Under the pieces are notes generated by a model. The model saw only the letters and a program-made list of their open reading frames with translations, searched no databases and was not told the origin of the DNA. Positions 3,621 to 49,140 of a stretch of DNA of 64,000 bases are shown piece after piece. The position numbers and the translations under genes are program-made. The stretch is from IMG/VR virus record IMGVR_UViG_3300008113_000014, positions 44,864 to 108,863 of that record. The stretch is one strand, 5' to 3'. Positions within the stretch are counted from its first letter, which is position 1. Each line of letters starts with the position of its first letter. The stretch is from a virus.

Positions 3621-6566
3621 CTATGCTTTTATATCTCCAGATAGTAACCATGCATCTGTTGCTACCTTTGTAAGTGTAGCAGATGAGTAGAGTGCTCTTA
3701 GAGTATTTCCTGGTGCTGCATAGATTGTTACTCCAGCTGCTGCTACAAAGTTTGCTCCACCTGCTCCAGATGATTGCCAGAAACTAATTGATGTTCCTAC
3801 TGGAAAAGCAGTTGTTGCCATAGTTGGAACCGTTACTGCATATGCTCCTGAAATTTGAATTAACTGATCTCTCAGAGCAAGCCCACCTGTTGATAAGTTG
3901 TAGGCTGCTCCAATTGTAGTTGTTGTAGTTGTTAGTGATGGTACACCAGCTTTTGTCTGAGTACCGTCTGTAAACGCTACACCTGAAGCAGAGGCTGTAA
4001 TTAAACCTGATGCTGTAACTGCTGCTGCATTTACAGTGCCTGTGAATGTTGGTGATGCTAGAGGTGCTTTATTTCCAAGTGCAGTTGTAATGGTTGCTGC
4101 GTAGTTTGCATCATCACCAAGTGCTGCTGCGAGTTCATCAAGAGTGTTAAGTGCTGCTGGTGCACCAGTTGTTAAAATAGCAAGTTCTTGCTGAACGAAA
4201 CTTGTTGTAGCAACTTGTGTTGTATTAGTTCCAGTTGCTGCAAGTGGTGCAGTTGGTGTTCCAGTAAGAGCTGGAGATGCTAATGGTGCCTTAAGTCCTA
4301 GGTCTGTAGTAAGACCTGAAATTTTAGACTGAGCAATTCCTGCTGCTGAAGCAATATCTCCATCAACAATTGTTCCATCTGCAATCATTCCTGATGTAAC
4401 AGTTCCTGCTGGAAGAGTTACAGTGCCTGTAAATGTAGGTGATGCAAGTGGAGCCTTAAGAGCAAGTGCTGTTGATGTAGCATCTGAAATTGGCTTAAGT
4501 GCATCTGATGTATTGTCTGCGTTACCAAGGCCAACCATAGACTTGGTTACACCAGAAACGGTGCCAGTAAATGTTGGTGAGGCAATTGGGGCTTTAAGAT
4601 CAAGTGCTGCTTGTGTAGCGCTTGATATTGGTTTTAGAGAATCTGTTGTGTTGTCAACGTTAGCAAGACCTACCATTGTCTTAGTTATACCAGCAACGGT
4701 GCCAGTAAATGTTGGAGATTCAAGTGTAGCGTAACCTGAAATTAGTGCTCCTGTAGGTATTGTAACTGTTCCTGTAAATGTTGGTGAGGCAATTGGGGCA
4801 CGTAGACCAAGAGCAGTTTGTGTTGCTGTTGAAACTGGCTTTGCAGTATCTGCTGTGTTATCAACGTTTCCAAGACCTACGTGTGCTTTTGTAACACCAG
4901 AAACTGTTCCTGTAAATGTTGGTGAAGCTAGTGGAGCATATGTAGATGCTGCTGTAGAAGATGCAAGCTTAAGATCAAGCTGTGTTTGTGTAGCAGTTGA
5001 GATTGGTTTGTTTGCGTCTGTTGTGTTATCAACATTTCCAAGGCCAACGTGTGCTTTTGTAACACCAGCAACTGTTCCTGTGAATGTTGGAGAAGAAAGT
5101 GGAGCGTATGTTGTGCTAGCAGCTACTGCTCCAAGCTTTGAAGCAAGTTGTGTTTGAATATTTTCAGTTAATCCATCAAGGTATCCAATTTCAGTATTAG
5201 ATACTGAACCAACAGTTAATGATGTTGCTTCAAGTGCACCAACTGCAAGGTCATCAAGTGATCCTTGTCCAAAATTAACAGTAGTTGTTGGTGCATCAGC
5301 AACTCCCTTAAACAGTTTCCATTTTGCATCAGATGAGTCCTTTACAAAACCTTGATGTTTAGCTGTTCCATCGTTGTATGAGCCTACAAAACCAATATCT
5401 ACAAGGTTGGCAGCATTACCACTACCAAGATAAATTACTGGGTCTTCAACTGTAAGATTTGTTGTGTTTACAGTTGCACTTGTTCCAGAAACTGTTAAGT
5501 TACCGTCAACAATTAAATCATTGCTAACTGTAAGGTTGACTGCAGTTGCTGTACCAGTTAATGCTGGGCTAGCAAGAGGTGCCTTAAGATCAAGTGCTGT
5601 TTGTGTAGCGGTTGAAACTGGCTTTGCTGCATCTGAAGTATTATTTACATCTGCAAGTCCAACATGTGCCTTTGTTACACCGCTTACAGTTCCAGTAAAT
5701 GTTGGGGATGCGATAGGTGCTTTAAGGTCAAGCGCTGCTTGTGTGGCTGTTGAGATTTGCTTATTTGCGTCTGATGTATCGTCTACGCTTGTAAGGCCAA
5801 CCATTGCTTTTGTAATACCAGATACAGTTCCTGTAAATGTTGGGGAAGCAATTGTGGCTCTAAGATTAATTTGATTTTGAACATTAGCTGAAAGTCCATT
5901 AAGGTATCCAATTTCAGTATCGTCAACGTTTGCAACTTTTGCCTGGAATGCTGTTGCATCAACGGCAAGTGAAATTGTGTTTCCAGGATCACTGTATGTC
6001 TTTAAAAGACCATTTCCAGCAACTATAGCAGTGTCAATAGCATCCTGTGAAAGTTCTGCAATGTCTGCTGAGTTTGCCTTTAAATTCAGTGCAGTCTGTG
6101 TAGCTGTAGAAACAGGCTTATCAGCATCTGATGTATTGTCAACATTTCCAAGACCAACATCTCCCTTTACCAATCCTGCTGGAGATGTAATAGTTTTATT
6201 TGTTAAAGTTTGTGTTCCTGTTGTTGTAACTAAAAGTGAAGTATCTGCAATACCGTGGATGGCTGTTGTATCTGCTTGGTGGTTTGAAAGGTTTGTGGCA
6301 ACTGTTGTAAAGAAAGCTGGATCATCGCCAATTGCTGCTGCAAGCTCATCAAGAGAGTTGAGTAGTCCTGGCGCACCTGCAATTGTTGTAGCAAGGTCAA
6401 CGAAGTATGCTAGGTTTACCCAGTGGTTTACTCCATCACCAATCTTAAATTTATTTGTGTCTGACTCATAACCAATTTCACCTATTGCTAGAATTGGCCC
6501 ATTTCCACTATTTGTAGAGATCCACTGCGCTGCAGTGCCTCTACGTTGTTGCATTCTTGTTGCCAT
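3621..6566 (-). CDS. Long repetitive tail-fibre-like protein with Mtd/hyaluronidase-type N-terminal anchor
   Basis: N-terminus QRRGTAAQW...GEIGYESDTNKFKIGDG; many APxASPTFTGTV and VGLGNVDNTSDAxKPxSTATQ repeats; LNTLDELAAALGDD motif. Confidence 0.8.
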   Translation of the reverse strand: MATRMQQRRGTAAQWISTNSGNGPILAIGEIGYESDTNKFKIGDGVNHWVNLAYFVDLATTIAGAPGLLNSLDELAAAIGDDPAFFTTVATNLSNHQADTTAIHGIADTSLLVTTTGTQTLTNKTITSPAGLVKGDVGLGNVDNTSDADKPVSTATQTALNLKANSADIAELSQDAIDTAIVAGNGLLKTYSDPGNTISLAVDATAFQAKVANVDDTEIGYLNGLSANVQNQINLRATIASPTFTGTVSGITKAMVGLTSVDDTSDANKQISTATQAALDLKAPIASPTFTGTVSGVTKAHVGLADVNNTSDAAKPVSTATQTALDLKAPLASPALTGTATAVNLTVSNDLIVDGNLTVSGTSATVNTTNLTVEDPVIYLGSGNAANLVDIGFVGSYNDGTAKHQGFVKDSSDAKWKLFKGVADAPTTTVNFGQGSLDDLAVGALEATSLTVGSVSNTEIGYLDGLTENIQTQLASKLGAVAASTTYAPLSSPTFTGTVAGVTKAHVGLGNVDNTTDANKPISTATQTQLDLKLASSTAASTYAPLASPTFTGTVSGVTKAHVGLGNVDNTADTAKPVSTATQTALGLRAPIASPTFTGTVTIPTGALISGYATLESPTFTGTVAGITKTMVGLANVDNTTDSLKPISSATQAALDLKAPIASPTFTGTVSGVTKSMVGLGNADNTSDALKPISDATSTALALKAPLASPTFTGTVTLPAGTVTSGMIADGTIVDGDIASAAGIAQSKISGLTTDLGLKAPLASPALTGTPTAPLAATGTNTTQVATTSFVQQELAILTTGAPAALNTLDELAAALGDDANYAATITTALGNKAPLASPTFTGTVNAAAVTASGLITASASGVAFTDGTQTKAGVPSLTTTTTTIGAAYNLSTGGLALRDQLIQISGAYAVTVPTMATTAFPVGTSISFWQSSGAGGANFVAAAGVTIYAAPGNTLRALYSSATLTKVATDAWLLSGDIKA

Positions 6567-9538: not shown

Positions 9539-9763
9539 TCAAAGTATATAGTTACTAAAGCCAATAATTTGCAACGGGATTGGTACAACAGTAGATAAAC
9601 CACTAGCCTCAATCCGTATTGCTGTTAATCTAATTCTAAAGGGTAAAACAGAGTTAATTGTAACATTTTTACTTGGTGCCCTGACAGATGCTTTTATTGA
9701 AAGATCTTGTTCAATTCTTTTTGTAAATACTGGCTGCTTGTCATAAATCTTAACATTAGCCAT
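9539..9763 (-). CDS. Hypothetical protein
   Basis: 74 aa ORF coupled to upstream gene (TAATG overlap). Confidence 0.55.
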   Translation of the reverse strand: MANVKIYDKQPVFTKRIEQDLSIKASVRAPSKNVTINSVLPFRIRLTAIRIEASGLSTVVPIPLQIIGFSNYIL

Positions 9764-10176
9764 TATGCAGTCACATCTTCAAGGACAATAAGTTTGCCTT
9801 GAGCTACCGTCCAAACTATTGCATCTTGCGGTAAAGAAACCTCAATATCAAAAATATCATTTGTTCGTAGTGTTGCAGTTTGTGCTGGTGATAATGAAAC
9901 AGTAAACTCACCATCTAGATCATCTGCATCTTGAATTGGAACTAAGGTTAAAAGAAGTGTTGCTGTGTCTGTTATTTCTCCAGGAACAACTGGTGTTGTA
10001 GTAGGACGCTTGATCTGCATAGAAATATTCCAGTCAGGAATTTCCAATGGTACTTTTGCATCATCTGTTAAATAAACCTTAAATGCTGCACTATCTCCCT
10101 TGACAAAAGTCCAATTAACGAATGGTGGAGCTTCTCCAATATCGTATGTAGACGCTTGTCCTCTATATGTAGCCAT
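9763..10176 (-). CDS. BppU-like baseplate/virion protein
   Basis: Likely start MATYRG at 10176 after TGGTATAAT; WTFVKGD...L...DIEV...WTVAQG pattern; paralog of 20690-21091. Confidence 0.55.
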   Translation of the reverse strand: MATYRGQASTYDIGEAPPFVNWTFVKGDSAAFKVYLTDDAKVPLEIPDWNISMQIKRPTTTPVVPGEITDTATLLLTLVPIQDADDLDGEFTVSLSPAQTATLRTNDIFDIEVSLPQDAIVWTVAQGKLIVLEDVTA

Positions 10177-10328
10177 TTTTATATTATACCACGATGAAAA
10201 TAAGAAATTAAGAGATTTAAAATAATTTAAATAAATATCACAAAAACTTGCTTTTTGGGGAATTTGGATGCTATACTTAGAGAGTGCTACCAACTGGTAG
10301 CATCTTTAGTCTCTAGGAGGTTATTATT

Positions 10329-10901
10329 ATGAGAAGAGATAAGAAGGTTTGGATTGGAATCCTTGCACTACTTGGGTTGGTTGCTCCTTTGAGTAATTCA
10401 GCCAATGCTTTAAATACCGAAAATAATCTAAGTAAAACAGAAGTTCTTGCTATGCCAACCGCCAAAGCGGTTTTTTTGCTTTCTAAGCCTAAAAGTCTGG
10501 TAGCAGTAAAAAAAGACTTAAACGTTCTGCACAAGTATCAAGATGCCATTAGTCTGACAGATCGTCAACTAAAGGAACTTCTTCATGCCGTTGGTTTCCG
10601 TGGAGAGGGCCTTGTAAAAGCTTGGGCGGTAGCTAAGAAAGAATCTAATGGTCGTCCAATGGCTTTTAATGGTAATGAAAAGACTGGGGACAATTCTTAT
10701 GGTATATTCCAGATAAATATGATTGGAATGCTAAAGGATGGTCGCAAAGAAAAGTTTGGCATTAACTTTAACAGTGAATTGTTAAACCCTGTTATTAATG
10801 CACAGGTTGCCTATCATATGAGTAATGGTGGTAAAGATTGGTCTGCTTGGCATGGAATAACGCCAAAGACTAAGGTTTGGATGAAGAAGTTTCCTATTTA
10901 A
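10329..10901 (+). CDS. Secreted lytic transglycosylase (SLT/lysozyme-like)
   Basis: Signal peptide; AVAKKESNG catalytic Glu, SYGIFQIN, LLNPVINA, WSAW; promoter TTGCTT-N18-TATACT and AGGAGG RBS. Confidence 0.85.
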   Translation: MRRDKKVWIGILALLGLVAPLSNSANALNTENNLSKTEVLAMPTAKAVFLLSKPKSLVAVKKDLNVLHKYQDAISLTDRQLKELLHAVGFRGEGLVKAWAVAKKESNGRPMAFNGNEKTGDNSYGIFQINMIGMLKDGRKEKFGINFNSELLNPVINAQVAYHMSNGGKDWSAWHGITPKTKVWMKKFPI

Positions 10902-11485
10902 AAAGGAAGATCTTTATTTAACGTTACTGGGTATTCGTCATTACCCCTCATAAAGATAGTTGAAAAATATCTTGTAGTATCATTTAGGACTGGTAATGAG
11001 CCATGCAGTATTTCTCCTCCGTGAATAAGGGCAGATCCTGCTTTTGGTTTAATTGTTATTCCTAATTCTGGATAGTCAATCTCTCCACCAAGATAGTCAT
11101 TATTATAGTAAATTACGATGCCGTATCCAAGATAATACCCTTGTGGGGTTGTGTCATTATCACGATGCTGACCAATTGCTTCTTCCTCTTTAAATCTAGA
11201 TATTTTTATTTCTTTTTCACAGTAATAATATGATGGGAATATGTAATCAACTTTATCAAAAATAGCAGTCTTGCAAAATTCATTATTTTCACCAAGGAAT
11301 AAGCTTTTGCCATACCAAAAATCATTCTCATCACCAATATAGTTTTTGTCATGCCATTGATCTTCAGTTGCTTGATTAATAATAGCCAAAATTGACTCTA
11401 GCTCTAAAGAATCTAAAAAGTTTTCAATTTCATAAACATCTTCAGCAAGTTTGTTAATTTTAAAATTATACATAGGGCTAACCAA
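10898..11485 (-). CDS. 2OG-Fe(II) oxygenase (prolyl-4-hydroxylase-like)
   Basis: HRD...YYNNDYLGGEI...KPKAG...HG...R. Confidence 0.88.
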   Translation of the reverse strand: MVSPMYNFKINKLAEDVYEIENFLDSLELESILAIINQATEDQWHDKNYIGDENDFWYGKSLFLGENNEFCKTAIFDKVDYIFPSYYYCEKEIKISRFKEEEAIGQHRDNDTTPQGYYLGYGIVIYYNNDYLGGEIDYPELGITIKPKAGSALIHGGEILHGSLPVLNDTTRYFSTIFMRGNDEYPVTLNKDLPF

Positions 11486-12146
11486 ATTTACTACTATTAA
11501 TATGATTTAGCTCAATATGATTAATGTTAACATGGCTTGGTAGATCAGATACCCAGCGAATGCACTCTGCCATATCCTCAGCGGTAATAGCACTATCACG
11601 TCTTTCTTCTTGTGTATCAATTGTGCCTGGACAAATTTCAGTTATTTTAATACCATATTGAGGAAATTCTAGCCTCATTGTATCTACCAATGCCATCTGA
11701 CCTCTTTTAGCATTAATGTAATTGCCTCCAGAACGGTACGGAACCTTACCACCCAATGAGCTAACAAAAATAATGGTTGGGTTAGTGGACTTTTCCATTG
11801 CTGGTACAAATAACTGAGAAATATACATTGGCCCTGTTACATTAATATCATATGCAATTCTAAAGTTTGCTGGTGTTTCATTAATAATCATTGTTGGACT
11901 AGATCCACCACCTGCATTATTAACTAGCAAGTCTAAAGTGATGTCTTTATATTTTTCAGCAAATAGTTTTATTTGGTCAGAGTCTGTAACATCTATCTGA
12001 TAAATTTCAACATTGTCTGAAACAAGGTCTAACATTTTAGAGATATTTCTTGATGCTGCGATTACCTTGTATCCACTTTTTTCAAGAAGCTTTACGGTTG
12101 CTCTTCCAACACCCTTGCTTGCTCCAGTAACTATTGCTGTTTTCAA
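11478..12146 (-). CDS. Short-chain dehydrogenase/reductase (YdfG-like)
   Basis: TGASKGVG, NNAG, YINAK (YxxxK), PGTIDT. Confidence 0.92.
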   Translation of the reverse strand: MKTAIVTGASKGVGRATVKLLEKSGYKVIAASRNISKMLDLVSDNVEIYQIDVTDSDQIKLFAEKYKDITLDLLVNNAGGGSSPTMIINETPANFRIAYDINVTGPMYISQLFVPAMEKSTNPTIIFVSSLGGKVPYRSGGNYINAKRGQMALVDTMRLEFPQYGIKITEICPGTIDTQEERRDSAITAEDMAECIRWVSDLPSHVNINHIELNHINSSKFG

Positions 12147-12878
12147 TTACATGCTCTGACTAGAATTAAGGCTCATGTGGTTATGAATCCAGTGACCAGG
12201 AACCATAAACTTATACCCAGACTTAACTACGTGTGCTGTGTGAAAGTATGGAGCGTATGCTGGAAATATAACAACGCTATTTGCTTTAGGTTTTAAACCA
12301 AAATCAATAGATTTATCAGCAACTGCAACATCATAGTCTAAGTCTACTGCTGGAGCACCTCTTACCCATCCATCAGAACTTGTCCATCCTCCATCATAAT
12401 CTTTTAGCTGGAAAGAGATTTCTCCACCCTCACAGTCATCATTGAGGTACATGACTAAAGAATATCTTAGGGTTTGGTCTCCATCTAATTGATCAAAGTG
12501 TGCCCCCATGCCCATTCCAGTATTATATTTTTTTATATTAAAGGTTGGAAAAAGCCTTGGCTCATCAAAATCCCCCAAAGAAGATGCGTAGTCTTTGCAA
12601 ACATTGTACATCGTAGTCATAATAGCGTCATATATATATTTACTTTTTTCTGCTACTTCTCCACTAAGGTTGTTTATTGCGTTTACGTCAAATGTTTTTG
12701 TTTCTCCATAAATAAAAGTTTTGTCGTTAGAAGATGTCCAAGGGTTCCAAACATTTACACCTAACTCACTGTATTGCTCAAGAGTATCTAGATCTTTCCA
12801 AACCTTTTTAAAGGTATCAAAATCTTCTATTGCATCAGTATAGTAATAAGTTTTTGGATCTAGTTTTTCTACGTTCAC
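12147..12878 (-). CDS. 2OG-Fe(II) oxygenase
   Basis: HFD...YLNDDCEGGEI...H...K. Confidence 0.88.
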   Translation of the reverse strand: MNVEKLDPKTYYYTDAIEDFDTFKKVWKDLDTLEQYSELGVNVWNPWTSSNDKTFIYGETKTFDVNAINNLSGEVAEKSKYIYDAIMTTMYNVCKDYASSLGDFDEPRLFPTFNIKKYNTGMGMGAHFDQLDGDQTLRYSLVMYLNDDCEGGEISFQLKDYDGGWTSSDGWVRGAPAVDLDYDVAVADKSIDFGLKPKANSVVIFPAYAPYFHTAHVVKSGYKFMVPGHWIHNHMSLNSSQSM

Positions 12879-12887
12879 CTGTTCTCC

Positions 12888-13547
12888 TTAGTATTTGTTG
12901 TTTTCATAGTGGTTTTTTTCTTTAATAAATCCTACTATAACATATCTTATTGGTCCTTCTCCAACATGCTTTACTCCATGCTCGTGCTTATTGTCCCCTG
13001 GAAAAAACAACAAGTCTTTTGGCTTTGGTCTTAATGATATTCCAAGATTTGGAAAGAACAGCTCTCCTTCTACATAGTCATCATTTATATATATAATTGT
13101 TGCATATTTTATTGATGGGTCTGTATGCTGATCTGTATGAGATTTTAGTTCAACTCCTTTTTGCATTCTTTGAATTGTTGCTAATCCACTTAACATTAAT
13201 AAAGGATCTGAATCATCAACCATTGTTGATAATCTTTTATAAAAAACTTGCTGCTCTTTATGATGCTTTATGTTTAAATTTTTATCTGCCCAGTTTTGTG
13301 TGATTTCAAATTTTCCTTCAGCAACAAGGTTGTCTACATCATCTCTTCCAAACTTTTCCATACAAAATCTAGCAAGATTTGTTGTATATTCTATTTCCCA
13401 GTCTGCTTGTGATGCATTATCTATGCATTTTAAAACAAAGTCTAGATCTTCATTTGTAAAAAAATCTTTAATCCAAAGAATTTCATCTGTAACTTCTTCA
13501 AATACAAAATTATTTTCTTTAAGTTTTTCTTTAAACTTTTCAAGCAT
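12888..13547 (-). CDS. 2OG-Fe(II) oxygenase
   Basis: HTD...YINDDYVEGEL...HGV...R; likely start MLEKF with GAGG RBS. Confidence 0.88.
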   Translation of the reverse strand: MLEKFKEKLKENNFVFEEVTDEILWIKDFFTNEDLDFVLKCIDNASQADWEIEYTTNLARFCMEKFGRDDVDNLVAEGKFEITQNWADKNLNIKHHKEQQVFYKRLSTMVDDSDPLLMLSGLATIQRMQKGVELKSHTDQHTDPSIKYATIIYINDDYVEGELFFPNLGISLRPKPKDLLFFPGDNKHEHGVKHVGEGPIRYVIVGFIKEKNHYENNKY

Positions 13548-14295
13548 TTGGCACCTCATTAGAGTTATACTTATTTCCGTCCTTGTCTAGCTTCCAGCCT
13601 TGCTTAAGCAATTCTTGCCATTCTGCTCTTTCAATTTCTTGTTTTGCTCTAGTTTCTTTCATTTCTGCAGCCCAGGCATCTCTTAATTCTTGTGGGTATG
13701 CATCTTCTTCTCTGTCGTCCCAAAAAGAACCAATTGTATATCTAACTCCCTTAGTAATAAGGCTTACCTCGTGCATGTTATTAAATCCACCATCAAAAGC
13801 AGCAAGCATTCCAACTTTAGGTTGTAGACTTATCTCTTGATCTGGGAACTGTAACATTCCACCATCAAAGTCATCGTTCAAATATAAGAATGCTGCATAT
13901 CTACTTCTTGTAAATGCACCAGAGTGTCCGTGTTCGTCTGTGTTGTCAGAGTGTTTTCTTGCATACGCTCCTGGCTCCCACTTTTGTGTGTGATAACCAA
14001 TTTGAGAAATTATTTTTGGATCAAGGTCGTGAACGCTTGCAACTGCATCAATAATTCCTTGTTTTATTTGTGAAAATATGTCACTTGGCAATCCTTCATT
14101 CTTTACATGCTCGTCGTCATCTTGTGGTAAAACAGAAGAGTATGATTCATAAAAAGATATAGGCATCCAGGTAATCAATTCAAGTTCTGCATGCTTGTCT
14201 AAAACTTTTACAAGTTTAGCAGCAGTTTCTGAATCAATAAAGTTTTCATAAACAACAATGTCTTTTGTTATTCTAGTTTTATTGGTTAAGTTCAT
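13540..14295 (-). CDS. 2OG-Fe(II) oxygenase
   Basis: HSD...YLNDDFDGG...HEV...GVRY. Confidence 0.88.
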   Translation of the reverse strand: MNLTNKTRITKDIVVYENFIDSETAAKLVKVLDKHAELELITWMPISFYESYSSVLPQDDDEHVKNEGLPSDIFSQIKQGIIDAVASVHDLDPKIISQIGYHTQKWEPGAYARKHSDNTDEHGHSGAFTRSRYAAFLYLNDDFDGGMLQFPDQEISLQPKVGMLAAFDGGFNNMHEVSLITKGVRYTIGSFWDDREEDAYPQELRDAWAAEMKETRAKQEIERAEWQELLKQGWKLDKDGNKYNSNEVPNA

Positions 14296-15164
14296 TTTAT
14301 TCTCACAGCTCCCTCTATCTCATTTCTTTGTGGGTTGTCTATTCTAAACTGCTCGTTCAGCTTTGGTTGCATGCTAGACCAAACATCTTTTCCAAATTCT
14401 TTTTCTTTCTCATACCATTCATCTGTTCCTTTTTGATATTTTTGCCAATACATTCTTGCTAAAAATTTGTTTTTGTTATAAGACGGCATAACCCCATGTA
14501 AGTATGGTTTGTCATCCTCTGTTAAGTAATCTGGGTGTCCTGATGGAAAAACTAAAAGATCTCCAGCTTCTGGCTTGTACTTAACAAGTTTGTCTCCCAT
14601 AGCAAAGTCAATTTCTCCACCTTCATAGTCATCATTAAAATAAATTGTACATGTTATTATAAACTTATATCCTGGAGCAGATCCTTGCTCTCTCATATAG
14701 TCTGAATGATATCTCATTCCATGTTGTTCTTCTTCGTTGCTGATATGATACTTTCCTATTGTTCCACCTGTCCATCTCCAGGTTGGAATAAGATCGCCTG
14801 ATTCGTCTATGGACAATGACTCTAAATCTACATCAATGTTATATTTTTTAATATAGTCTTCTGTAACTAAATGAAAGTTTTTCATCATTTCTATACCAAA
14901 TTGTTTTTGGTTTTCTTCAATTTCTGTTTTTGTTTCAATGCTTTCTAAACCTCCATCTTTATAATCCATAGAAAAAGAAGGTGTCATTGGATTTAAATAT
15001 TCTCCAAAAATAGACCACTTTGTCCAAGGATTAAAAAGTCTATCTTCTGACTCTATTAAAGAATCTGTTAAAACCTTATAAGATTTTGAAATATCTTTAA
15101 ACATGTTTTTATAAACAAGAATATGTGGATATATCTCTACAGATTCAAGAGCTGGAGTAGTCAT
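14292..15164 (-). CDS. 2OG-Fe(II) oxygenase
   Basis: HSD...YFNDDYEGGEI...KPEAGDLLVFPS...HGV. Confidence 0.88.
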   Translation of the reverse strand: MTTPALESVEIYPHILVYKNMFKDISKSYKVLTDSLIESEDRLFNPWTKWSIFGEYLNPMTPSFSMDYKDGGLESIETKTEIEENQKQFGIEMMKNFHLVTEDYIKKYNIDVDLESLSIDESGDLIPTWRWTGGTIGKYHISNEEEQHGMRYHSDYMREQGSAPGYKFIITCTIYFNDDYEGGEIDFAMGDKLVKYKPEAGDLLVFPSGHPDYLTEDDKPYLHGVMPSYNKNKFLARMYWQKYQKGTDEWYEKEKEFGKDVWSSMQPKLNEQFRIDNPQRNEIEGAVRIK

Positions 15165-15839
15165 TTATGGTTTCCTGTCTCCAGTGTGCTCTGTAATTTC
15201 CCAGAAAAATGGGCATGTAAATCTTAATCCACTCTTTATCTCAGTCACTCCGTGAATATAGTTTTTGTCTCCTGGGAAGAAGTAAGCTGCACCTTTTTTT
15301 GGTTTAAACTGTACACCTTGTAGTGGGAAATACAGTTCTCCTCCCTCATAGTCTTCATTTAAATAGAACAAACTAGATAAATCATAATTAGGAAAATCGT
15401 TTGGAAGTCCAGCGTCTGGGCCATCGTGAAGTTCTTTGTCTGCGTGAGGTTTTTGAAATTGTCCTGGAAGCCACTTTACTATAGTGGTACCTGTAGGGAT
15501 AACCTTTACTTTGTAAAACTCTTCTACTATTGGTTGTAGTCTTTGAAATAGTCCAGCAATGACTGGGGAAATGTTTGGATCGTTTTTATCTAGGCTTGGT
15601 TGAGTTGCTACTCTATCTTTCCAATAATCAGAATCATAAACAACCGTTCCATTTTCATTAACATGACTTTGTGTTACATCCCAAATTGTCAAAGATTTTG
15701 CAGATTTTTCTAAAAACTCTATTTCTTCTTGAGTCATAAAGTTTTCTAGCTCAACGATCATGTCTTTGCTATCACCAAACCAGCCAGATGGTGTGAGTGA
15801 AGCCTTTCTAACTACAACAGAAGCATCCATTTTATCCAT
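15165..15839 (-). CDS. 2OG-Fe(II) oxygenase
   Basis: HAD...YLNEDYEGGEL...HGV...GLRF. Confidence 0.9.
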   Translation of the reverse strand: MDKMDASVVVRKASLTPSGWFGDSKDMIVELENFMTQEEIEFLEKSAKSLTIWDVTQSHVNENGTVVYDSDYWKDRVATQPSLDKNDPNISPVIAGLFQRLQPIVEEFYKVKVIPTGTTIVKWLPGQFQKPHADKELHDGPDAGLPNDFPNYDLSSLFYLNEDYEGGELYFPLQGVQFKPKKGAAYFFPGDKNYIHGVTEIKSGLRFTCPFFWEITEHTGDRKP

Positions 15840-15841
15840 AA

Positions 15842-16570
15842 TTAGATTATACCATTTCCCTTGTTTGATGTATTATCAGTAACAGAAAGACGTAAAACCT
15901 TAGTTTCGTGAGAACCCGTACTTTCACCTTTTTCATTTACTGCATCTCTATACCAGTCAGTCCATTGTCCAGACTTGTTGATTTCTTGTGCAGCTTCACC
16001 ATACGACTGATGAGCCATCTGCCTTTTTCTATCTACATCTGAATAATCAATTATTTGAATTGATGTATTGTCCATTGCCGTCAAAGAAATTGGAATTATT
16101 GTAGCAATTGGGGTTCCTGCTTTTATAGTAATTTCCTTGTTTGCAGATCTTGCTTTAATTGCTAATGGAAAACCAGTATCAAGCCAAGATGTAGATATTA
16201 AAGATGACATTGTTTCAAAATCATCATTAAAGTAATTAACTGGATTAATTGTAAGCATGCTAACGTTTTGCTCAGATCTAAAAGTTAGGCCAGTATGTAG
16301 GCTAACTGTAGACTGCCCTCTTCCAGTATATGTAAAGTCTGAACCTTCTAGTATAGTTACATTCTCTGAACTTGTATCATTTATACCGTTCCAAATAAAC
16401 TTAATGTCTTCAGTACATGAAAGACTCCAGCCAACCATATTCGCTTGTGTAACTGGAAAACATCTATAGGCATGCTTTTCTGGAGTTACATCCATCCAAT
16501 CTCTTTTAATTGACATTGGAGAAAGTATGATTTTTGAATCTGGAAATCTTTCAGCTGATATATTAAGCAT
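15842..16570 (-). CDS. DUF6065-like protein
   Basis: RDWMD...HAYRCFPVTQANMVGW...GTPIATIIP pattern typical of this oxygenase-associated family. Confidence 0.65.
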   Translation of the reverse strand: MLNISAERFPDSKIILSPMSIKRDWMDVTPEKHAYRCFPVTQANMVGWSLSCTEDIKFIWNGINDTSSENVTILEGSDFTYTGRGQSTVSLHTGLTFRSEQNVSMLTINPVNYFNDDFETMSSLISTSWLDTGFPLAIKARSANKEITIKAGTPIATIIPISLTAMDNTSIQIIDYSDVDRKRQMAHQSYGEAAQEINKSGQWTDWYRDAVNEKGESTGSHETKVLRLSVTDNTSNKGNGII

Positions 16571-17226
16571 TAGTCTTTGTCTACCATATACATTTCGTTA
16601 GTGTGAAACTTTTTGTTATAATCAAGCATTGTTACAATAGAATACTTTGTTCCTGAAATAACTGGCATTGCACGATGAGGATACATGAAGTTTGATGGAA
16701 AAATAAATAAATCTCCTGCATCTGCCTTAATGTCTAGGTTCTGGAGTCTAAAGAAAAGTGAACCGCCTTCATAGTCATCATTTGGGTATGCAACAAGTGA
16801 CACTGTGCAGTTATAAGAAAAACCATGATCATGGTGTTCTTGAAAGTGTTGTCCTGGTCCATATTTAATAAAATTAAAAGCTTCCCAATACTTTAAATCC
16901 ATTATGTTGTAGTCTTTTCTGTAATCATCAACACATGGAGACTTAACATCATATAGATCTTGCCAAAGCTCTTGTAGTTTTATTGAGTCTGGTGTTTTGT
17001 TTTGTTCAATATCAGTTTTCTTATACTTAAAATCTACACAGTCTCTGTAGTCTGGAATTAGCTGCTGGTATCCAACATATGCTGGTTGCCAAGTAAATTG
17101 TTCTTTTGAACCTAGTGGCTTTACAACAGATTCAATTCTGTTTATCACATCAATATCTTTATTAATGACACCTTTATAGCATACAATACCATTACCATAG
17201 TTAACCTTTTCTGTCCAAGTTTGCAT
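16570..17226 (-). CDS. 2OG-Fe(II) oxygenase
   Basis: HHD...NDDYEGG...FPSNFMYPH...GTKYS. Confidence 0.9.
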   Translation of the reverse strand: MQTWTEKVNYGNGIVCYKGVINKDIDVINRIESVVKPLGSKEQFTWQPAYVGYQQLIPDYRDCVDFKYKKTDIEQNKTPDSIKLQELWQDLYDVKSPCVDDYRKDYNIMDLKYWEAFNFIKYGPGQHFQEHHDHGFSYNCTVSLVAYPNDDYEGGSLFFRLQNLDIKADAGDLFIFPSNFMYPHRAMPVISGTKYSIVTMLDYNKKFHTNEMYMVDKD

Positions 17227-17234
17227 TTTTCTCC

Positions 17235-18011
17235 CTATTTATATTCTCTTCTAGACCAAACTTTATTTTTATAAATACCGCCGTCTGGTTGGCGATAAAA
17301 ATTTGCATTGGCTATCATTTTAGCATATATCTTTTCTTGATTTTGAAACTCTATCTCATGGCTCCAGTTTTCTCTTTTAAATGGTAAAATTTGGACATAT
17401 GGAGTCCCTGCTGGTATTGTTCCTTCCCAGCCTTCTGCAATAAAAAATGGAAAGGTACCAAGCAGGTGAACACTGTCATTATCAACAACACCAGTTGTAT
17501 TAATAAATGGAAGATCAAATCTATTCATAGGTGTCATAAATAATGCACTATATCCTTCTGGAAGTTCAAATCCCCAATCTGGATACCAGGCAAAATGATC
17601 TTTGTAAAATCCTTTTGGGTGCTCAAACTGTGGCATAGCAAGTCTTTTTCCACAAAAATCTTGATGTCTTTTATCTTCTATCTTAACATCTATTGATCCT
17701 GTCTCAGTTTTAAAAAAAGTAAGGTCACAAGGAGTTCTTAATACATATCCTGTTGAAAACCCATCCATAATTGCTGGACAAGCTTTCCATGTAGGTATTT
17801 TTCCATAGTCATCTGTAGTTCCTTCTTTTGGAAAAGGACAAACTTCTTTTGGTGCTTTGTAGTATTCACCAGTTGGCATTTTTGCAAATCTGTCGGCATC
17901 TTTATACCATTGTGGTATTTCAGACTGTGTTGTTTTAGGCACTGATTTACTATCCTTGTTTAACCAAGGCCTAAAAGATCTAAAGATTACTAAATTATCT
18001 TTTAGACTCAT
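17235..18011 (-). CDS. DUF6065-related protein
   Basis: PQWYK...TWKACPAIMD...GYVL...GVVDND...GTPYVQILPFKRE. Confidence 0.55.
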   Translation of the reverse strand: MSLKDNLVIFRSFRPWLNKDSKSVPKTTQSEIPQWYKDADRFAKMPTGEYYKAPKEVCPFPKEGTTDDYGKIPTWKACPAIMDGFSTGYVLRTPCDLTFFKTETGSIDVKIEDKRHQDFCGKRLAMPQFEHPKGFYKDHFAWYPDWGFELPEGYSALFMTPMNRFDLPFINTTGVVDNDSVHLLGTFPFFIAEGWEGTIPAGTPYVQILPFKRENWSHEIEFQNQEKIYAKMIANANFYRQPDGGIYKNKVWSRREYK

Positions 18012-18723
18012 GATGATGCCCTAATAAATTAATATCTGTCATAATTACAACACAATATTTTGTTCCAGATATCATTGGAAGAGATGCATGTTCATATATA
18101 TAGTTTGATGGGAAAATTGCTATGTCTCCAACTTTTGGTGTTAGTGTGTATCCATCTAATCTTGGAAATTTAATTTCTCCACCTTCGTAGTCGTCATTTA
18201 TATATATAACTGCAGAAACTGTAGTATTGTATGCTGGTCCATGGTCGGCATGAATATTAAAGTGCTTACCCTGTCCCTCATACTTTACAAAATTAAAAGC
18301 TTCATAGTATATAACATTTATTCCCCAATATTTTGCATAGTCATCTATGCATAGTTTTAATTTTTGATAAATCTCTTCGTGTAAATCAATTAGTTCACCA
18401 TTAAACTCATCTCGTGGACCAAGATTTTCTTGCTTATATCTAAAATCTACAGCATCTCTTGCTTTTTTTATTGGTGTAGTAGCATTGGTTACTTGTGCTT
18501 CTGACCACTTATACTTTCTACCATTAGACAAATTGGACTCAAGAATATTGATGTATCTTTTAGAGTCCTCCAAAGAAAACGTATTTCTGTATATATTTAA
18601 TCCAAGTCCTGGATTTTCTATTACAATATTTTTTTCAGATATATCTCTATTAACCCTATTTGATACAGTCTCAGATCTATCTTTAGTAAACCATGGGTTT
18701 TCATTTTCATCATAAGTGTTCAT
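17995..18723 (-). CDS. 2OG-Fe(II) oxygenase
   Basis: HAD...YINDDYEGGEI...FPSNYIYEH...GTKY; own promoter TTTACA...TATAAT and GGGGG RBS. Confidence 0.9.
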   Translation of the reverse strand: MNTYDENENPWFTKDRSETVSNRVNRDISEKNIVIENPGLGLNIYRNTFSLEDSKRYINILESNLSNGRKYKWSEAQVTNATTPIKKARDAVDFRYKQENLGPRDEFNGELIDLHEEIYQKLKLCIDDYAKYWGINVIYYEAFNFVKYEGQGKHFNIHADHGPAYNTTVSAVIYINDDYEGGEIKFPRLDGYTLTPKVGDIAIFPSNYIYEHASLPMISGTKYCVVIMTDINLLGHHHESKR

Positions 18724-18876
18724 CTTTATCCCCTTTTTATTTATTATACACTACCTTTATCTTTTTGTAAACAAAAACAACCCTTGTTGCAAGTATTTTG
18801 CAAGACATGAATGATAGCACTCATAAAACACAAAAGGCCAAACAATGTTGGCCAATTGTATTACTTCTTTTTTATT

Positions 18877-19842
18877 TTACTGTACACCTGGAAGTGTAAA
18901 GTATGGGAAGTAAGGGTTATTTGCAGGGAAGTATGGGAAGTACGGTGGGAAGAATGGGAAGTAAGGGAAGTAAGGGAAGAATGGAGGGAAGAATGGGAAG
19001 AACGGGAAGTAAGGGAAGAAAGGTGGGAAGAACGGGAAGTATGGGAAGAACGGGAAGAAAGGTGGGAAGAACGGGAAGAATGGGAAGAACGGAAAGAAAG
19101 GTGGGAAAAATGGTGGGAAGAATGGGAAGAACGGTGGGAAGAACGGTGGGAAGAACGGAGGAAAGAACGGTGGGAAGAAAGGTGGGAAAAACGGAAAGAA
19201 TGGGAAAAATGGCGGAAAGAATGGACCGAATGTAGAAACAACAGAATTAGATGGTTGTGATGCTGCAGATGTTCCATTTGCATTTACTGCGGTAACGGTA
19301 TAAGTATAAGTTCCAGCAGCAATTTCTGTAATAGTAATTGGTGAAGCAGAACCAGTTGCAGTACGTCCAGATGAAGATGTTACAGTGTGGAATGGTGAAA
19401 TTAAAGCTGAGTTTCCAGTATTTGGACTTGTAAATATAACAGATACTACACCAGATGTTCCACCAGATGCAGATCCAATAGTTGGAGCGTTTGGCTTTGA
19501 TGTTGGAACAACGGCTGCTGAGGCAGCAGATGCTGGTGATGATCCTATTGCATTTCTTGCAGTGACTGTAAAGGTATAATTTGCTGGAGTGCCAGTAGTT
19601 GACATTCCTGTAACAACTATTGGCGAAGATGCGCCAGTGGCTGTAAATCCACCAGCATTAGATGTGACTGTGTAATCAATGATTGGCATCTTGCCATCAA
19701 AAGCTGGTGGTGTAAATGCTACTGATACCTGTCCGCTACTATATGTCCGACCTGAGCCTTGAACAGTAACTGCACCAATAGTAGGAGCTTGTGGGACTGA
19801 TCTTTTTGAAGATTCGGTGGTACCATTATTAATTTGGCTCAT
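18877..19842 (-). CDS. Protein with two fibronectin type III domains and a C-terminal Pro/Phe/Tyr repeat tail
   Basis: PxAPTIG...F.PP...Y.V...YTFTVTARNAIG twice; then about 30 P(P)FF/PYF units. Confidence 0.85.
   Translation of the reverse strand: MSQINNGTTESSKRSVPQAPTIGAVTVQGSGRTYSSGQVSVAFTPPAFDGKMPIIDYTVTSNAGGFTATGASSPIVVTGMSTTGTPANYTFTVTARNAIGSSPASAASAAVVPTSKPNAPTIGSASGGTSGVVSVIFTSPNTGNSALISPFHTVTSSSGRTATGSASPITITEIAAGTYTYTVTAVNANGTSAASQPSNSVVSTFGPFFPPFFPFFPFFPPFFPPFFPPFFPPFFPPFFPFFPPFFPPFFPFFPFFPFFPPFFPFFPYFPFFPPFFPYFPFFPFFPPFFPYFPYFPFFPPYFPYFPANNPYFPYFTLPGVQ
18890..19225 (-). repeat. Coding tandem repeat of 9/12-nt units (PFF, PPFF, PYF)
   Basis: Plus strand gggaagaa(c/t/a)/ggtgggaagaa units with synonymous codon variation. 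Confidence 0.9.
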
Positions 19843-19882
19843 AGCAGTAATTGTACCATAAGATTATACACTTTTTGATATT

Positions 19883-20593
19883 TTATCTAACAAATATGTA
19901 CATATTTTTAGCGACCATTGAGGCATCGTTATCTGTCAGTATTTCTGGGAAAGCTCCATAATTCCTAACCATATCGTTTTCTACCACAAAAGTATGCTCT
20001 AGCGAAATATCATATGAAAATTGATATTTTAGGTTTGCAGCAAAAGTAGTTGGGCTAATACCTGAATCTGGGATATAGGTCTTGAACCAAACTTCCGTAT
20101 TATTACTAAATGTTGTTAAGACTATATCATAACGAACTGTTACAATTGATCCAACCTTTAATGCTGTTAGGTTTATTTTTTGTGACTGTGCATTATACAA
20201 AGAGACATTATTTTCTGGTAAGTATTGTTCATTATTCTTGCCTTTGCAGTCAAAGTTAAATCTGACCCATCCGTCATTTCCTTTTGTAGCACCTAAAATA
20301 ATATTTTTTTGATCTTTATTTGTGTATAGGGCCCAGCCAGATTTTTGTCCTGATGGAGATAGACCACTATCCCCTGCTTTTCCGTCTCTGCCATCTTTTC
20401 CAGGCTTTCCAGCCTCTCCTTGAGGTCCTGGTATGCCTTGTATTCCAGTATCCCCTGTGTCGCCTTTTGGCCCTCTTTCTCCTTGGGCTCCAGGAACTGC
20501 AACATATGAAATTGATTGTTCTAGCTCGTATGGTTGAACAATGTTGTCTGAATATTTTTTTGCTTTACCTGGAAAATCCATGCTTTTTGCCAT
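19883..20593 (-). CDS. Collagen-like (Gly-X-Y) repeat protein
   Basis: GAQGERGPKGDTGDTGIQGIPGPQGEAGKPGKDGRDGKAGDSG. Confidence 0.8.
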   Translation of the reverse strand: MAKSMDFPGKAKKYSDNIVQPYELEQSISYVAVPGAQGERGPKGDTGDTGIQGIPGPQGEAGKPGKDGRDGKAGDSGLSPSGQKSGWALYTNKDQKNIILGATKGNDGWVRFNFDCKGKNNEQYLPENNVSLYNAQSQKINLTALKVGSIVTVRYDIVLTTFSNNTEVWFKTYIPDSGISPTTFAANLKYQFSYDISLEHTFVVENDMVRNYGAFPEILTDNDASMVAKNMYIFVR

Positions 20594-20689: not shown

Positions 20690-21091
20690 TTACAAGCCTC
20701 CTGGAGTAATATCGCCAAGCACACAAATTGATCCAATTACTGGAGTCCAGACTGTGTTCTCTGATTCTCCTTGAGATTTTGGAATTGTTGCTTGTAAATC
20801 AAATGGTAGTTCTGCTACAACTGAGGTGTATTTGCTTCCCCAATTTTGTGTAATGTCTGATGAAATAAAAATTGTTGCGGTATGACCAGAAACAGTTACT
20901 TTAAGCTCATCAAGAATATCACCAGCAGGATCGTAGGCGGTAGATGAGAATGACCAAGTACTAATATTCCATCCAGTAACCTCGTCGTCTTGAAGGAATT
21001 GAACAGCAAGGGTAGAAGAGTCTCCACGCACAACAGTCCATTGGATATGAGCTGGTGTGGCTCCTAATTTCTCTGTTGTTGGGGTGCACAT
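20690..21091 (-). CDS. BppU-like virion protein
   Basis: WTVVRGDSSTL...FDLQ...WTPVIG; paralog of 9763-10176. Confidence 0.5.
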   Translation of the reverse strand: MCTPTTEKLGATPAHIQWTVVRGDSSTLAVQFLQDDEVTGWNISTWSFSSTAYDPAGDILDELKVTVSGHTATIFISSDITQNWGSKYTSVVAELPFDLQATIPKSQGESENTVWTPVIGSICVLGDITPGGL

Positions 21092-32973: not shown

Positions 32974-33047
32974 GGTTCCATAGATCAATTGGTTAGATCG
33001 CTACCCTGTCACGGTAGAGGCTACGGGTTCAAGTCCCGTTGGAATCG
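32974..33047 (+). tRNA. tRNA-Asp (GTC)
   Basis: Acceptor GGTTCCA/TGGAATC, anticodon arm CTACC-ctGTCac-GGTAG, T arm GGTTCAAGTCC. Confidence 0.93.
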
Positions 33048-33155
33048 CAAGCTTAAGTGGGCCCCGAGGAAATTAGTACAAAACGGACATTTAAGAAACT
33101 ATATAAATAATCTCAGAAAATTTAATTACGACAGACTTGCTTTTTTCCCAGTTTT

Positions 33156-42837: not shown

Positions 42838-43611
42838 ATGGCAAATAAATACCCTAATGAGGATTACCTCAACAGGAATGTTTCTGAACTATATGATATA
42901 TGGGAATCAAGAAAAGAATACATAGAAAAAGATTTATGGGTAATTAGAAACTTTTTGTCAGAAGAAGAAATAGAATGGCTCAATAAAGAAGCAAATGATC
43001 CAAATGGTTGGTACGACCTAATGAGGGCTACATATTGCGGTAACATTAAAAATAAATTCTTGGGCTATATTCCAGACTATAGTGAGGATGGCATGATGCT
43101 TGTTCCTACAGAAAATTCAAGGTGGGGCTATAGAGAGCCCGTAGGATTCTTTGAACCAAGGTTAGAAGCTGTAATGCCAAAATATTTTGGTGGAGGTGGA
43201 GCATTGCAATCATTTTTTGAAGTTCCTGATGAACAAATAATTGCAGAGCTTGGCAGAGATGTAGATTATGCTATGGGGTGGCATTATGAAAGAGATGATA
43301 GTGACGAAGAAGAGCAGCAAAAAACAATTGTAGAAAATTCAAAAACTCAAAACAAAAAAATAACTAGTCAAGGAAAAATATCAGCATCACTAAGTGTTTA
43401 TATTAATGATAACTTTGATGGTGGTATCTTGGAGTTTAAAAATAAAGAGTATTCTATAAAGCCAGAGGTGGGGATGCTTGTCAATGTTCCTTTATATAAA
43501 GAGTTTGAACATAGAGTTACAAAGGTTACTAATGGCAACAGGCATACAATATATGGAAGATGTTGGGATTCTGGAGATGGTAAATATTTCTCTACTAATG
43601 AGGACTGTTAA
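42838..43611 (+). CDS. 2OG-Fe(II) oxygenase
   Basis: WHYE...YINDNFDGG.L.F...KPEVG...HRV..V..GNR. Confidence 0.8.
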   Translation: MANKYPNEDYLNRNVSELYDIWESRKEYIEKDLWVIRNFLSEEEIEWLNKEANDPNGWYDLMRATYCGNIKNKFLGYIPDYSEDGMMLVPTENSRWGYREPVGFFEPRLEAVMPKYFGGGGALQSFFEVPDEQIIAELGRDVDYAMGWHYERDDSDEEEQQKTIVENSKTQNKKITSQGKISASLSVYINDNFDGGILEFKNKEYSIKPEVGMLVNVPLYKEFEHRVTKVTNGNRHTIYGRCWDSGDGKYFSTNEDC

Positions 43612-47404: not shown

Positions 47405-47478
47405 GCTCCAGTAGCTCAGTTGGTTAGAGCCCCAAACTCATAATTTGGTCGTCGTAGGTTCAAGTCCTACCTGGTGCA
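47405..47478 (+). tRNA. tRNA-Met/Ile2 (CAT)
   Basis: Anticodon arm CCAAA-ctCATaa-TTTGG; canonical D and T arms. Confidence 0.9.
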
Positions 47479-47482
47479 CTAT

Positions 47483-47555
47483 TGGTCTGTAGCTCAGTTG
47501 GTAGAGCGCCGAACTGTTAATTCGGATGTCACAGGATCGTGCCCTGTCAGACCAG
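47483..47555 (+). tRNA. tRNA-Asn (GTT)
   Basis: TGGTCTG/CAGACCA; CCGAA-ctGTTaa-TTCGG; unusual T-loop ATCGTGC. Confidence 0.85.
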
Positions 47556-47559
47556 CAAT

Positions 47560-47634
47560 GCGAAAGTAACTCAATGGTAGAGTACTACCTTGCCAAGGTA
47601 GATGTTGCGAGTTCAAATCTCGTCTTTCGCTCCA
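47560..47634 (+). tRNA. tRNA-Gly (GCC)
   Basis: GCGAAAG/CTTTCGC-TCCA; CTACC-ttGCCaa-GGTAG. Confidence 0.93.
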
Positions 47635-47635
47635 A

Positions 47636-47707
47636 GCCTTTATAGCTCAGAGGAAGAGCGGACGGTTTCTACCCGTTAGGTCGGAGGTTCAAATCCTTCT
47701 AAGGGCA
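47636..47707 (+). tRNA. tRNA-Arg (TCT)
   Basis: GCCTTTA/TAAGGGC; GACGG-ttTCTac-CCGTT; GGTTCAAATCC. Confidence 0.88.
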
Positions 47708-47760
47708 CAAAAAACAGAAAAGCCAGCCTATTTCTAGACTGGCAATCCTGAAAGTAAATA

Positions 47761-48075: not shown

Positions 48076-48122
48076 TTTTTCCTCCTAGGATATTTGATCA
48101 TTTTTTATCACTATGAGACTGA

Positions 48123-48974: not shown

Positions 48975-48981
48975 ATAACCA

Positions 48982-49140
48982 TTATCTCACATATGTTGTT
49001 AAAAAAGAGTAACCTACCCAAAGACCAATGATTCCAGCTACGCCTGCAAATACTGGAGGTGCTGGAACTGGTAACTTAAAGGCTGCAAATACGATACCGC
49101 ATCCAAACCCTGTAAGTGTTGATAAAATTATATCTTTCAT
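48982..49140 (-). CDS. XapX/DUF1427-like small membrane protein
   Basis: Own translation: MKDIILSTLTGFGCGIVFAAFKLPVPAPPVFAGVAGIIGLWVGY. Confidence 0.75.
   Translation of the reverse strand: MKDIILSTLTGFGCGIVFAAFKLPVPAPPVFAGVAGIIGLWVGYSFLTTYVR

Follow-up and report, generated by a model that had tools for sequence, protein, structure and literature searches.

A tandem array of eight divergent 2-oxoglutarate (2OG)-Fe(II) oxygenases in a viral genome lies directly downstream of a gene for a fibronectin type III (FN3) protein that ends in a long tract of Pro-Phe-Phe (PFF) and closely similar units, and in related phages the two are almost always neighbours. The locus is found in a stretch of 64,000 nucleotides (hereafter the window), the right-hand 64 kb (positions 44,864 to 108,863) of IMG/VR record IMGVR_UViG_3300008113_000014, which has 108,863 bp and is rated complete by CheckV; coordinates are those of the window unless stated otherwise. 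From sequence and gene order we put the probability that the array tailors the PFF tract of virion fibre proteins at roughly one half. Tandem 2OG oxygenase arrays have been known in aquatic phages since 2010 (PMC2938197), and a literature search found no report of a substrate for them. The array of this clade is linked to a single, highly unusual tract, which offers a concrete candidate substrate.

The linkage was counted over all fetched loci, among which 95 distinct arrays are preceded by 1.5 kb of DNA or more. A PFF gene lies directly ahead of the array in 94 of them: 89 scored positive, and five apparent misses proved to be artefacts of overlapping open reading frame (ORF) coordinates or of cluster splitting and were recounted as positive, leaving a single array (L120) with too little upstream DNA to judge. 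Among the 80 loci seeded with DUF6065 protein A, a member of the same operon, all 40 that extend more than 4.5 kb upstream have the PFF gene directly before the array. The reverse count began from PFF genes found by a DNA pattern blind to FN3 and with downstream DNA present, and an array follows within 3 kb in 54 of 61 cases. At least four of the seven exceptions (L163, L206, L215, L221) are extra PFF genes in records that carry an array elsewhere; the contigs of the others (L182, L207, L192) are too short or incomplete for a judgement. The PFF-array junction is constant across three gene orders, namely collagen-like gene, PFF gene, array and SLT_3 gene, as in the window; collagen-like gene, PFF gene, SLT_3 gene, phrog_1084 paralogue, tail-fibre genes of 148 and 655 residues, PFF gene and array; and tail-fibre gene of 655 residues, PFF gene and array. 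In several relatives the gap from the PFF gene to the first oxygenase is only 21-28 nt. A first-pass annotation of this DNA had proposed to test whether PFF genes and the array co-occur across related phages, and within the clade they strongly do. Arrays independent of the repeat protein, the outcome it had named as contrary, were not seen among the arrays judged inside the clade but do have a counterpart outside it, in distant DUF6065/oxygenase modules that lack a PFF gene.

The description of the window protein as two FN3 domains followed by a tail of Pro, Phe and Tyr is borne out by a Pfam fn3 match and by an AlphaFold2 model, in which two FN3-like beta-sandwiches are predicted with a predicted local distance difference test score (pLDDT) above 90. 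The tract spans residues 207-309 and comprises 29 units (12 PFF, 11 PPFF, 5 PYF and 1 PPYF), followed by ANN-PYFPYFTLPGVQ; it contains no Lys or Arg. It is modelled as coil at pLDDT 50-63, and no fold can be assigned to it from this monomer prediction. Tyr is confined to units 18-29, in agreement with its reported restriction to the distal half, but this pattern is not conserved: relatives average 1.6% Tyr and many have none, and a Tyr gradient was dropped as a general feature. The synonymous codons had been described as varied, which holds for Pro (CCA 20, CCG 12, CCT 10) but not for Phe, where TTC accounts for 45 of 52 codons in the tract versus TTT for 119 of 133 in the operon; CCG, too, is frequent in the tract but scarce outside it. 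The tract has a codon usage of its own and not simply a varied one, and the bias looks like selection on translation or copying, for example the avoidance of T-runs. A non-coding or DNA-level repeat was ruled out, as the Pro/Phe frame runs on from FN3 in all relatives and the Pro codons vary. Because this frame is always joined to upstream domains, in 180 distinct relatives, the tract is translated and selected and not a product of chance.

Searches with the tract itself were of limited yield. No usable look-alike was found in the ESM Atlas, and a protein homologue search with the tail region returned 10 weak matches, probably owing to composition correction. No match was found among 50,697 cultured phage records, either by megablast with the region or by tblastn with the PFF protein and DUF6065 A, with the proviso that the low-complexity filter may hide tails. 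A predicted complex of oxygenase 1 with tail residues 203-262 scored 0.00, an uncontrolled value that counts neither way on binding. Short-read contigs break inside the repeat and show a few 3-nt indels, from which no conclusion is drawn. Summed metagenome-contig depth over the repeat (18932-19201) is up to 100-fold above that of the flanks, and many co-occurring lake phages appear to share near-identical repeat DNA.

The tract belongs to a family. Viral contigs searched with the window PFF protein as seed gave 145 relatives, and 76 of the 80 that were fetched carry the Pro/Phe tail in the FN3 frame; a second search, with a DNA pattern for FFPPFFPFFPPFF that is independent of FN3, gave at least 119 further stretches. 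The total is 180 distinct PFF-tailed ORFs in lake viral contigs, on proteins of 170-1566 aa, with tails of 22-187 residues (median 68) composed of 48% Phe, 41% Pro and 1.6% Tyr. Beyond the tract the proteins differ: 99 have a short end, 57 a Cys-rich knot, 12 a Hint/intein-like module and 12 another domain. As the tract can lie between folded domains, it would act as a shaft segment and not as a peptide precursor. The Hint-like modules, which occur in relatives and not in the window protein, are about 165 aa long, begin with Cys and have HNK as their last residues before the stop (L175:6071-7390, L184:2791-4125, L222:2931-4295, L209:3560-6478 and L021:6092-7477 are examples); they match Intein_splicing at E 2e-5 to 8e-5 and Hint_2 at E 3e-3, all below cut-off, and a self-cleaving end of this kind would leave a reactive C-terminus on the tract. 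One relative is public as 'Fibronectin type III [uncultured Caudovirales phage]' at NCBI (P0003, on a 113-kb contig), a name that mentions FN3 only and not the tract.

The part of the genome outside the window encodes a second PFF-tailed protein, at genome positions 15370-18777 on the minus strand (L158:370-3777:-). It has 1135 residues, FN3 domains and the C-terminal end ...PFFPPFFPPTFGPFFPPFFPPFFPPTFGPFFPPYFAGPYFPYFTIPGAE, and the end motif PYFPYFT[LI]PG is common to it and the window protein. Its gene closes the tail module, and the start of this gene overlaps the end of the preceding 1121-residue gene; upstream of it are a minor tail protein gene and a gene whose 2985 residues match a tape measure in size. 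On account of the shared end motif and this tail-module position the PFF proteins are treated here as fibre parts, and we infer that they are in the virion.

The eight HxD...H oxygenases, two DUF6065-like proteins and short-chain dehydrogenase/reductase (SDR) of the first-pass annotation were all found where it had placed them. The operon (18723-10898, minus strand) runs from oxygenase 1 through DUF6065-like B, oxygenase 2, DUF6065 A, oxygenases 3-7 and the SDR to oxygenase 8. Seven of the oxygenases match PF13640, the family of prolyl 4-hydroxylase (P4H)/PLOD-type enzymes, at 36.6-47.6 bits against a cut-off of 27, and the eighth (10898-11485) falls below it at 23.3 bits; HxD and the distal His are kept in all eight, and the 2OG-binding position about 10 residues on is Lys in four and Arg in four. 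Pairwise identity is about 20%, except between oxygenases 1 and 2 (38%), while each oxygenase has orthologues in conserved order across phages, and this combination points to non-redundant roles. Related arrays hold five to ten oxygenases, and about half of the related loci have the SDR. Oxygenases of the PF13640 type are known for hydroxylation of Pro, Lys, Asp and Asn. With the profile of oxygenase 1, the gene most often directly behind the PFF gene in relatives, the best solved relative is the P4H of B. anthracis (E 1.3e-4), followed by LH3; for oxygenase 2 it is the mimivirus L230 collagen lysyl hydroxylase (E 0.003), and LH3 also matches. The nearest solved relatives of the oxygenases thus appear, weakly, to be protein hydroxylases. 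The B. anthracis enzyme (PDB 3itq, 5hv0) is a small bacterial P4H of which only the catalytic core of about 80 residues aligns, the N-terminal halves being unrelated. Over its full length oxygenase 5 weakly resembles the peptide oxygenase family YhhC (E 0.0014, far below cut-off), and two oxygenases have weak Tet_JBP matches; an NCBIfam scan returned nothing specific for the oxygenases and no specific subfamily for the SDR. Two more PF13640 genes lie in the window far from the array and the fibre genes, at 42838-43611 (plus strand) and 54907-55515 (minus strand), and the first lacks HxD in the alignment and may be inactive.

DUF6065-like B aligns with DUF6065 at 22% identity. In the model of DUF6065 A (pLDDT 71) the fold is dUTPase-like: trimeric dUTPases and dCTP deaminases match at a Z of about 10, and the next fold at 3.8. 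The catalytic sequence motifs of these enzymes are not kept, and the best E value against dUTPase sequences, 0.21, is not significant; motif 4, which is GDRIAQ in dUTPases, has an equivalent that reads AGTPxAT, without the Arg and Gln. A DUF6065 profile search gave 2859 clusters, and among prokaryote genomes the domain was found on five short contigs of metagenome-assembled genomes assigned to four bacterial groups, which are most likely mis-binned phage DNA. Haloarchaeal myoviruses of the HF1/HF2 type carry a lone distant homologue of DUF6065-like B at 27-31% identity, which in HF1 (L160, Halophage HF1 48119-49003) sits between a ribonucleotide reductase gene and tail/baseplate genes. A literature search on DUF6065, PFF-type strings and phage P4H with tail fibres gave nothing relevant.

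That the tract is the substrate, and which of its residues are modified, we infer from sequence. The locus would be a fibre-tailoring module of a lake siphovirus-like phage, in which FN3 proteins ending in a (PFF/PPFF)n tract would form parts of the virion fibres and the tract a very hydrophobic proline/aromatic shaft or tip, carrying, according to the phage, a short end motif, a Cys-rich knot, a putatively self-cleaving Hint-like domain or a further globular domain. The battery of genes behind one PFF gene, with its five to ten old, diverged oxygenases, two DUF6065 proteins and often an SDR, would modify the tract post-translationally. The likeliest chemistry would be hydroxylation of Pro, perhaps also of Phe or Tyr, in differing sequence contexts; the SDR may oxidise or epimerise the hydroxyl group, and DUF6065 may assist the two HxDHG-type oxygenases as a partner that is non-catalytic or depends on a thiol. 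The tract would be expected to become soluble, stiffer or stickier, a gain comparable to that which hydroxyproline gives to collagen and plant cell-wall proteins. A more specific form of this proposal, in which about eight context-specific hydroxylases together with DUF6065 and the SDR make (Pro-Phe-Phe)n into a poly-hydroxylated rod or adhesive fibre tip, is put forward as a tentative possibility.

The tandem dioxygenase array gp41-gp54 of Synechococcus phage Syn9, described by Iyer, Abhiman, de Souza and Aravind in 2010 (PMC2938197), resembles the window array in several respects. Both have many diverged classical 2OG-Fe(II) dioxygenases in tandem (eight in 7.8 kb in the window), both include a conserved-Cys protein of predicted dUTPase-like fold (DUF6065 in the window, gp43 in Syn9), and both lie just downstream of tail-fibre and low-complexity genes, Gly-rich in Syn9. 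Because the DUF6065 profile matches Syn9 gp43 (hhalign probability 95%, E 3.4e-8), the window array is considered a relative of the Syn9 system. The two differ in that the 11 proteins of the window operon include no match to a tryptophan halogenase or to JmjC/MINA, whereas Syn9 gp49 matches JmjC, and in that the window has an SDR and a pair of DUF6065 genes, each with an HxDHG-type oxygenase as its partner. The window phage is an actinophage-like siphovirus and Syn9 a cyanomyovirus, and the Pro/Phe-tailed gene directly upstream in the window clade supplies a candidate substrate that is absent from the Syn9 description. Synechococcus phage S-SCSM1 has a 'short tail fiber protein' (SSCSM1_245, L360:5081-6346) whose gene is flanked by two 2OG oxygenase blocks. 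A 270-aa repeat with abundant Arg, Gln, Pro, Phe and Asn (RQPRNF, RAPFNFR) makes up the middle of this protein, whereas the shorter paralogue SSCSM1_244 is rich in Gly.

Several observations weigh against the tract as the substrate of the array. All linked loci belong to one phage clade, and the linkage counts are inflated by the shared descent within it. A distant DUF6065 seed retrieved 27 viral loci with 0-2 oxygenases and no PFF gene, and the arrays of Syn9 and S-SCSM1 also lack one; since such distant modules exist without it, the oxygenase and DUF6065 families do not depend on PFF. The first-pass annotation had described a tightly coupled operon, and the 11 genes, with intergenic gaps of -20 to +9 nt, do form such a unit, but the PFF gene lies outside it. 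In the window a terminator-like hairpin and a strong sigma-70-like site part the PFF gene from the operon, and because they lie between the two, these may be expressed at different times here; among relatives, the sigma-70-like site is shared by the closest alone. A substrate of two letters gives no evident reason for eight enzymes, the dUTPase-like fold predicted for DUF6065 would also fit nucleotide chemistry, and Iyer et al. favoured secondary-metabolite or peptide chemistry for the Syn9 array (PMC2938197). The earlier suggestion that the tail is a hydroxylation substrate therefore draws support from the co-occurrence within the clade and loses some of it to the distant modules and the operon's own promoter-like site.

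The competing explanation that survives best is that the array acts on a non-virion target, be it a small-molecule or peptide metabolite, a host protein, a nucleotide or a DNA base, with the adjacency of the PFF gene merely reflecting a tolerated insertion site at the end of the tail-fibre module. The proposal made for the homologous Syn9 array (PMC2938197), the fold of DUF6065, the two Tet_JBP matches, an SDR that suits small-molecule pathways, the operon's own sigma-70-like promoter, the two further oxygenase genes distant from the fibre genes and the distant modules without PFF would all agree with such chemistry. We nevertheless regard it as unlikely, if a serious competitor, given a PFF-array junction that recurs in 94 of the 95 arrays and in no fewer than three gene orders, an operon with no synthetase, halogenase, transporter or nucleotide-metabolism gene, the absence of significant dUTPase sequence similarity and altered motif 4 of DUF6065, and oxygenases whose nearest solved relatives are protein hydroxylases. 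The surroundings of the distant loci point the same way. The neighbours of distant DUF6065 genes are low-complexity fibre-like proteins, and the DUF6065 relatives in HF1 and Syn9 adjoin tail-fibre genes. One locus (L364) has an Ig and Gly-rich protein amid five DUF6065 genes, and in another (L369) the flanking genes are those of the window, but PFF and array are replaced by a tail-fibre-repeat protein and a single DUF6065. A third (L365:2364-10131) looks like a hydroxylate-then-glycosylate fibre module: three DUF6065 genes in tandem accompany a 2OG oxygenase gene, a gene of the Skp1 hydroxyproline GlcNAc-transferase family (PF11397, E 9e-14) and one for a collagen-like protein of 655 aa. Because these enzyme families recur beside repetitive fibre proteins, protein tailoring is favoured over nucleotide or metabolite chemistry.

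If the target is a virion protein, the array could instead tailor other fibre proteins, such as the collagen-like protein or the large tail fibres, and the PFF proteins would be unmodified neighbours. We consider this improbable. The collagen-like protein, encoded two genes upstream of the array, has about 14 GXY triplets with Pro and Lys among the Y positions, the oxygenases have collagen prolyl and lysyl hydroxylases as their best solved relatives, and the L365 locus groups a collagen-like gene with an oxygenase, the GlcNAc-transferase family member and DUF6065 genes. Against this, a complete relative (L032, 100,769 bp, CheckV 100%) combines a PFF gene with six or more oxygenases and gives no Collagen match, so that collagen is not required, and an array-bearing relative that is 82% complete also has no collagen-like gene. 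In the second gene order the collagen-like gene is 8-10 kb from the array and a PFF gene stands directly ahead of it, and eight diverged enzymes would hardly be needed for fourteen GXY triplets. The possibility, raised in the first-pass annotation, that the collagen-like protein is a substrate too is weakened by the same complete relative. The further suggestion of ribosomally synthesised and post-translationally modified (RiPP)-like peptides, taken here to mean that the tract would be a precursor of, for instance, antamanide- or cyclolinopeptide A-like Pro-Pro-Phe-Phe cyclic peptides cut out and oxidised by the operon, can draw on PPFF as the core of natural cyclic peptides (PMC9266943, PMC9182219; Amanita MSDIN papers) and on the very weak match of one oxygenase to a peptide-maturing family, yet is very hard to credit for an operon with no protease, cyclase, recognition element or exporter and a tract borne by folded FN3 proteins of 170-1566 aa, one of them in the tail module, and lying between folded domains in some relatives.

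To return to modification of the PFF tract, other viruses offer partial parallels. The P4H of PBCV-1 acts on proline-rich repeats. In mimivirus, the collagen lysyl hydroxylase/glycosyltransferase L230 is likewise a virus-encoded P4H/PLOD-like oxygenase tied to repetitive structural proteins, and viral collagen hydroxylation is established for it (title of PDB entry 6ax6). These systems differ from the window array in having one or two enzymes rather than eight, with marginal sequence similarity, and in acting on GXY or PAPK-type repeats and not on Pro/Phe; the window operon also has no glycosyltransferase, in which it differs from L230. A parallel for the tract comes from synthetic material: the Pro-Phe-Phe tripeptide self-assembles, and the assemblies of Hyp-Phe-Phe, its hydroxyproline (Hyp) form, are stiffer with stronger hydrogen bonding (PMC8113556). 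The three-residue unit is identical to that of the tract, but these are free tripeptides in crystals or fibres and not a polymer on a protein, so that the likeness is an analogy only.

The second PFF protein, the PFF family, its linkage to the array, the collagen-free relative, and the DUF6065 fold and gp43 homology are new here. If the tract is the substrate, it would represent a new type of modified structural protein in viruses, give the DUF6065 family a role and provide a natural Pro/Phe polymer, so far known only as a synthetic self-assembling material. The poly-hydroxylated rod, if real, would be the natural counterpart of synthetic Hyp-Phe-Phe, a new kind of post-translationally built structural protein and the first substrate to be assigned to the long-unexplained dioxygenase arrays that aquatic phages carry in tandem.

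The features of the region are collected in Table 1. From 21091 to 9763 the minus strand carries a phrog_1084 gene, the collagen-like gene, the FN3-Pro/Phe gene, a gap of 153 nt, the 11-gene operon, a phrog_1084 paralogue and tail-fibre genes; Pfam and PHROGs agree with the first-pass annotation on the collagen-like gene upstream and the tail-fibre genes past the operon. An SLT_3 gene on the plus strand interrupts this series between the operon and the second phrog_1084 gene. It is convergent with the operon, overlaps its end by 4 nt and bounds the array downstream, a position kept in relatives.

Table 1. Features of the PFF-array locus and its flanks, in window coordinates.
Feature	Position	Strand	Basis and remarks
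phrog_1084 protein	20690..21091	-	PHROGs E 6e-6; upstream flank, kept in relatives
Collagen-like tail-fibre protein	19883..20593	-	Pfam Collagen E 2.9e-7; PHROG tail-fibre families
FN3-FN3-(PFF/PPFF/PYF)29 protein, 321 aa; candidate substrate and putative fibre protein	18877..19842	-	Pfam fn3 E 7.2e-8
Terminator-like hairpin then T-run, just past PFF gene	18836..18853	-	Consensus match only
Sigma-70-like promoter TTTACA-17-TATAAT ahead of operon	18743..18771	-	11/12 matches, best site of the region
Oxygenase 1, HADHG type, Lys	17995..18723	-	PF13640 E 4e-11
DUF6065-like protein B	17235..18011	-	phrog_7084, PHROGs E 7.6e-31; no Pfam match
Oxygenase 2, HHDHG type, Lys	16570..17226	-	PF13640 E 3.3e-12
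DUF6065 protein A	15842..16570	-	PF19541 E 1.8e-31; invariant Cys37
Oxygenase 3, Arg type	15165..15839	-	PF13640 E 9.2e-9; triad present
Oxygenase 4, Lys type, long inserts	14292..15164	-	PF13640 E 1.3e-9; missing from some related arrays
Oxygenase 5, Arg type, charged C-terminal extension	13540..14295	-	PF13640 E 4.6e-9
Oxygenase 6, Arg type	12888..13559	-	PF13640 E 1.6e-9
Oxygenase 7, Lys type, ~30-residue insert in barrel	12147..12878	-	PF13640 E 7.5e-9
Classical SDR	11478..12146	-	adh_short E 1.5e-39
Oxygenase 8, Arg type, last operon gene	10898..11485	-	PF13640 E 1.3e-4, below cut-off; HRD...H present
SLT_3 lysozyme-like gene, signal-like N-terminal segment	10329..10901	+	Pfam SLT_3 E 7.7e-17
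phrog_1084 paralogue	9763..10293	-	PHROGs E 9e-12; downstream flank
Tail-fibre gene past operon, 148 aa	9069-9515	-	PHROG tail-fibre families
Tail-fibre gene past operon, 655 aa	7083-9050	-	PHROG tail-fibre families
Further tail-fibre gene	3621-6566		PHROG/Pfam scans

The source is an uncultured siphovirus-like lake phage, probably with an actinobacterial host, the host assignment following from a WhiB-family gene at 50145-50318 on the minus strand (genome 95008-95181, E 1.5e-11), although the G+C content of the phage is no more than about 37%. The tRNA genes of the window, among which tRNA-Phe and tRNA-Pro are absent despite the demand of the tract, comprise a cluster of four (Met, Asn, Gly, Arg) at 47405-47708 and a lone tRNA-Asp at 32974-33048, all on the plus strand. 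The region is near-identical in at least 12 public runs from at least 9 studies, with no RNA run among the public runs listed as containing it, and more than 590 portal relatives of the phage group were found; the group is abundant in lakes, and its adsorption apparatus therefore matters ecologically.

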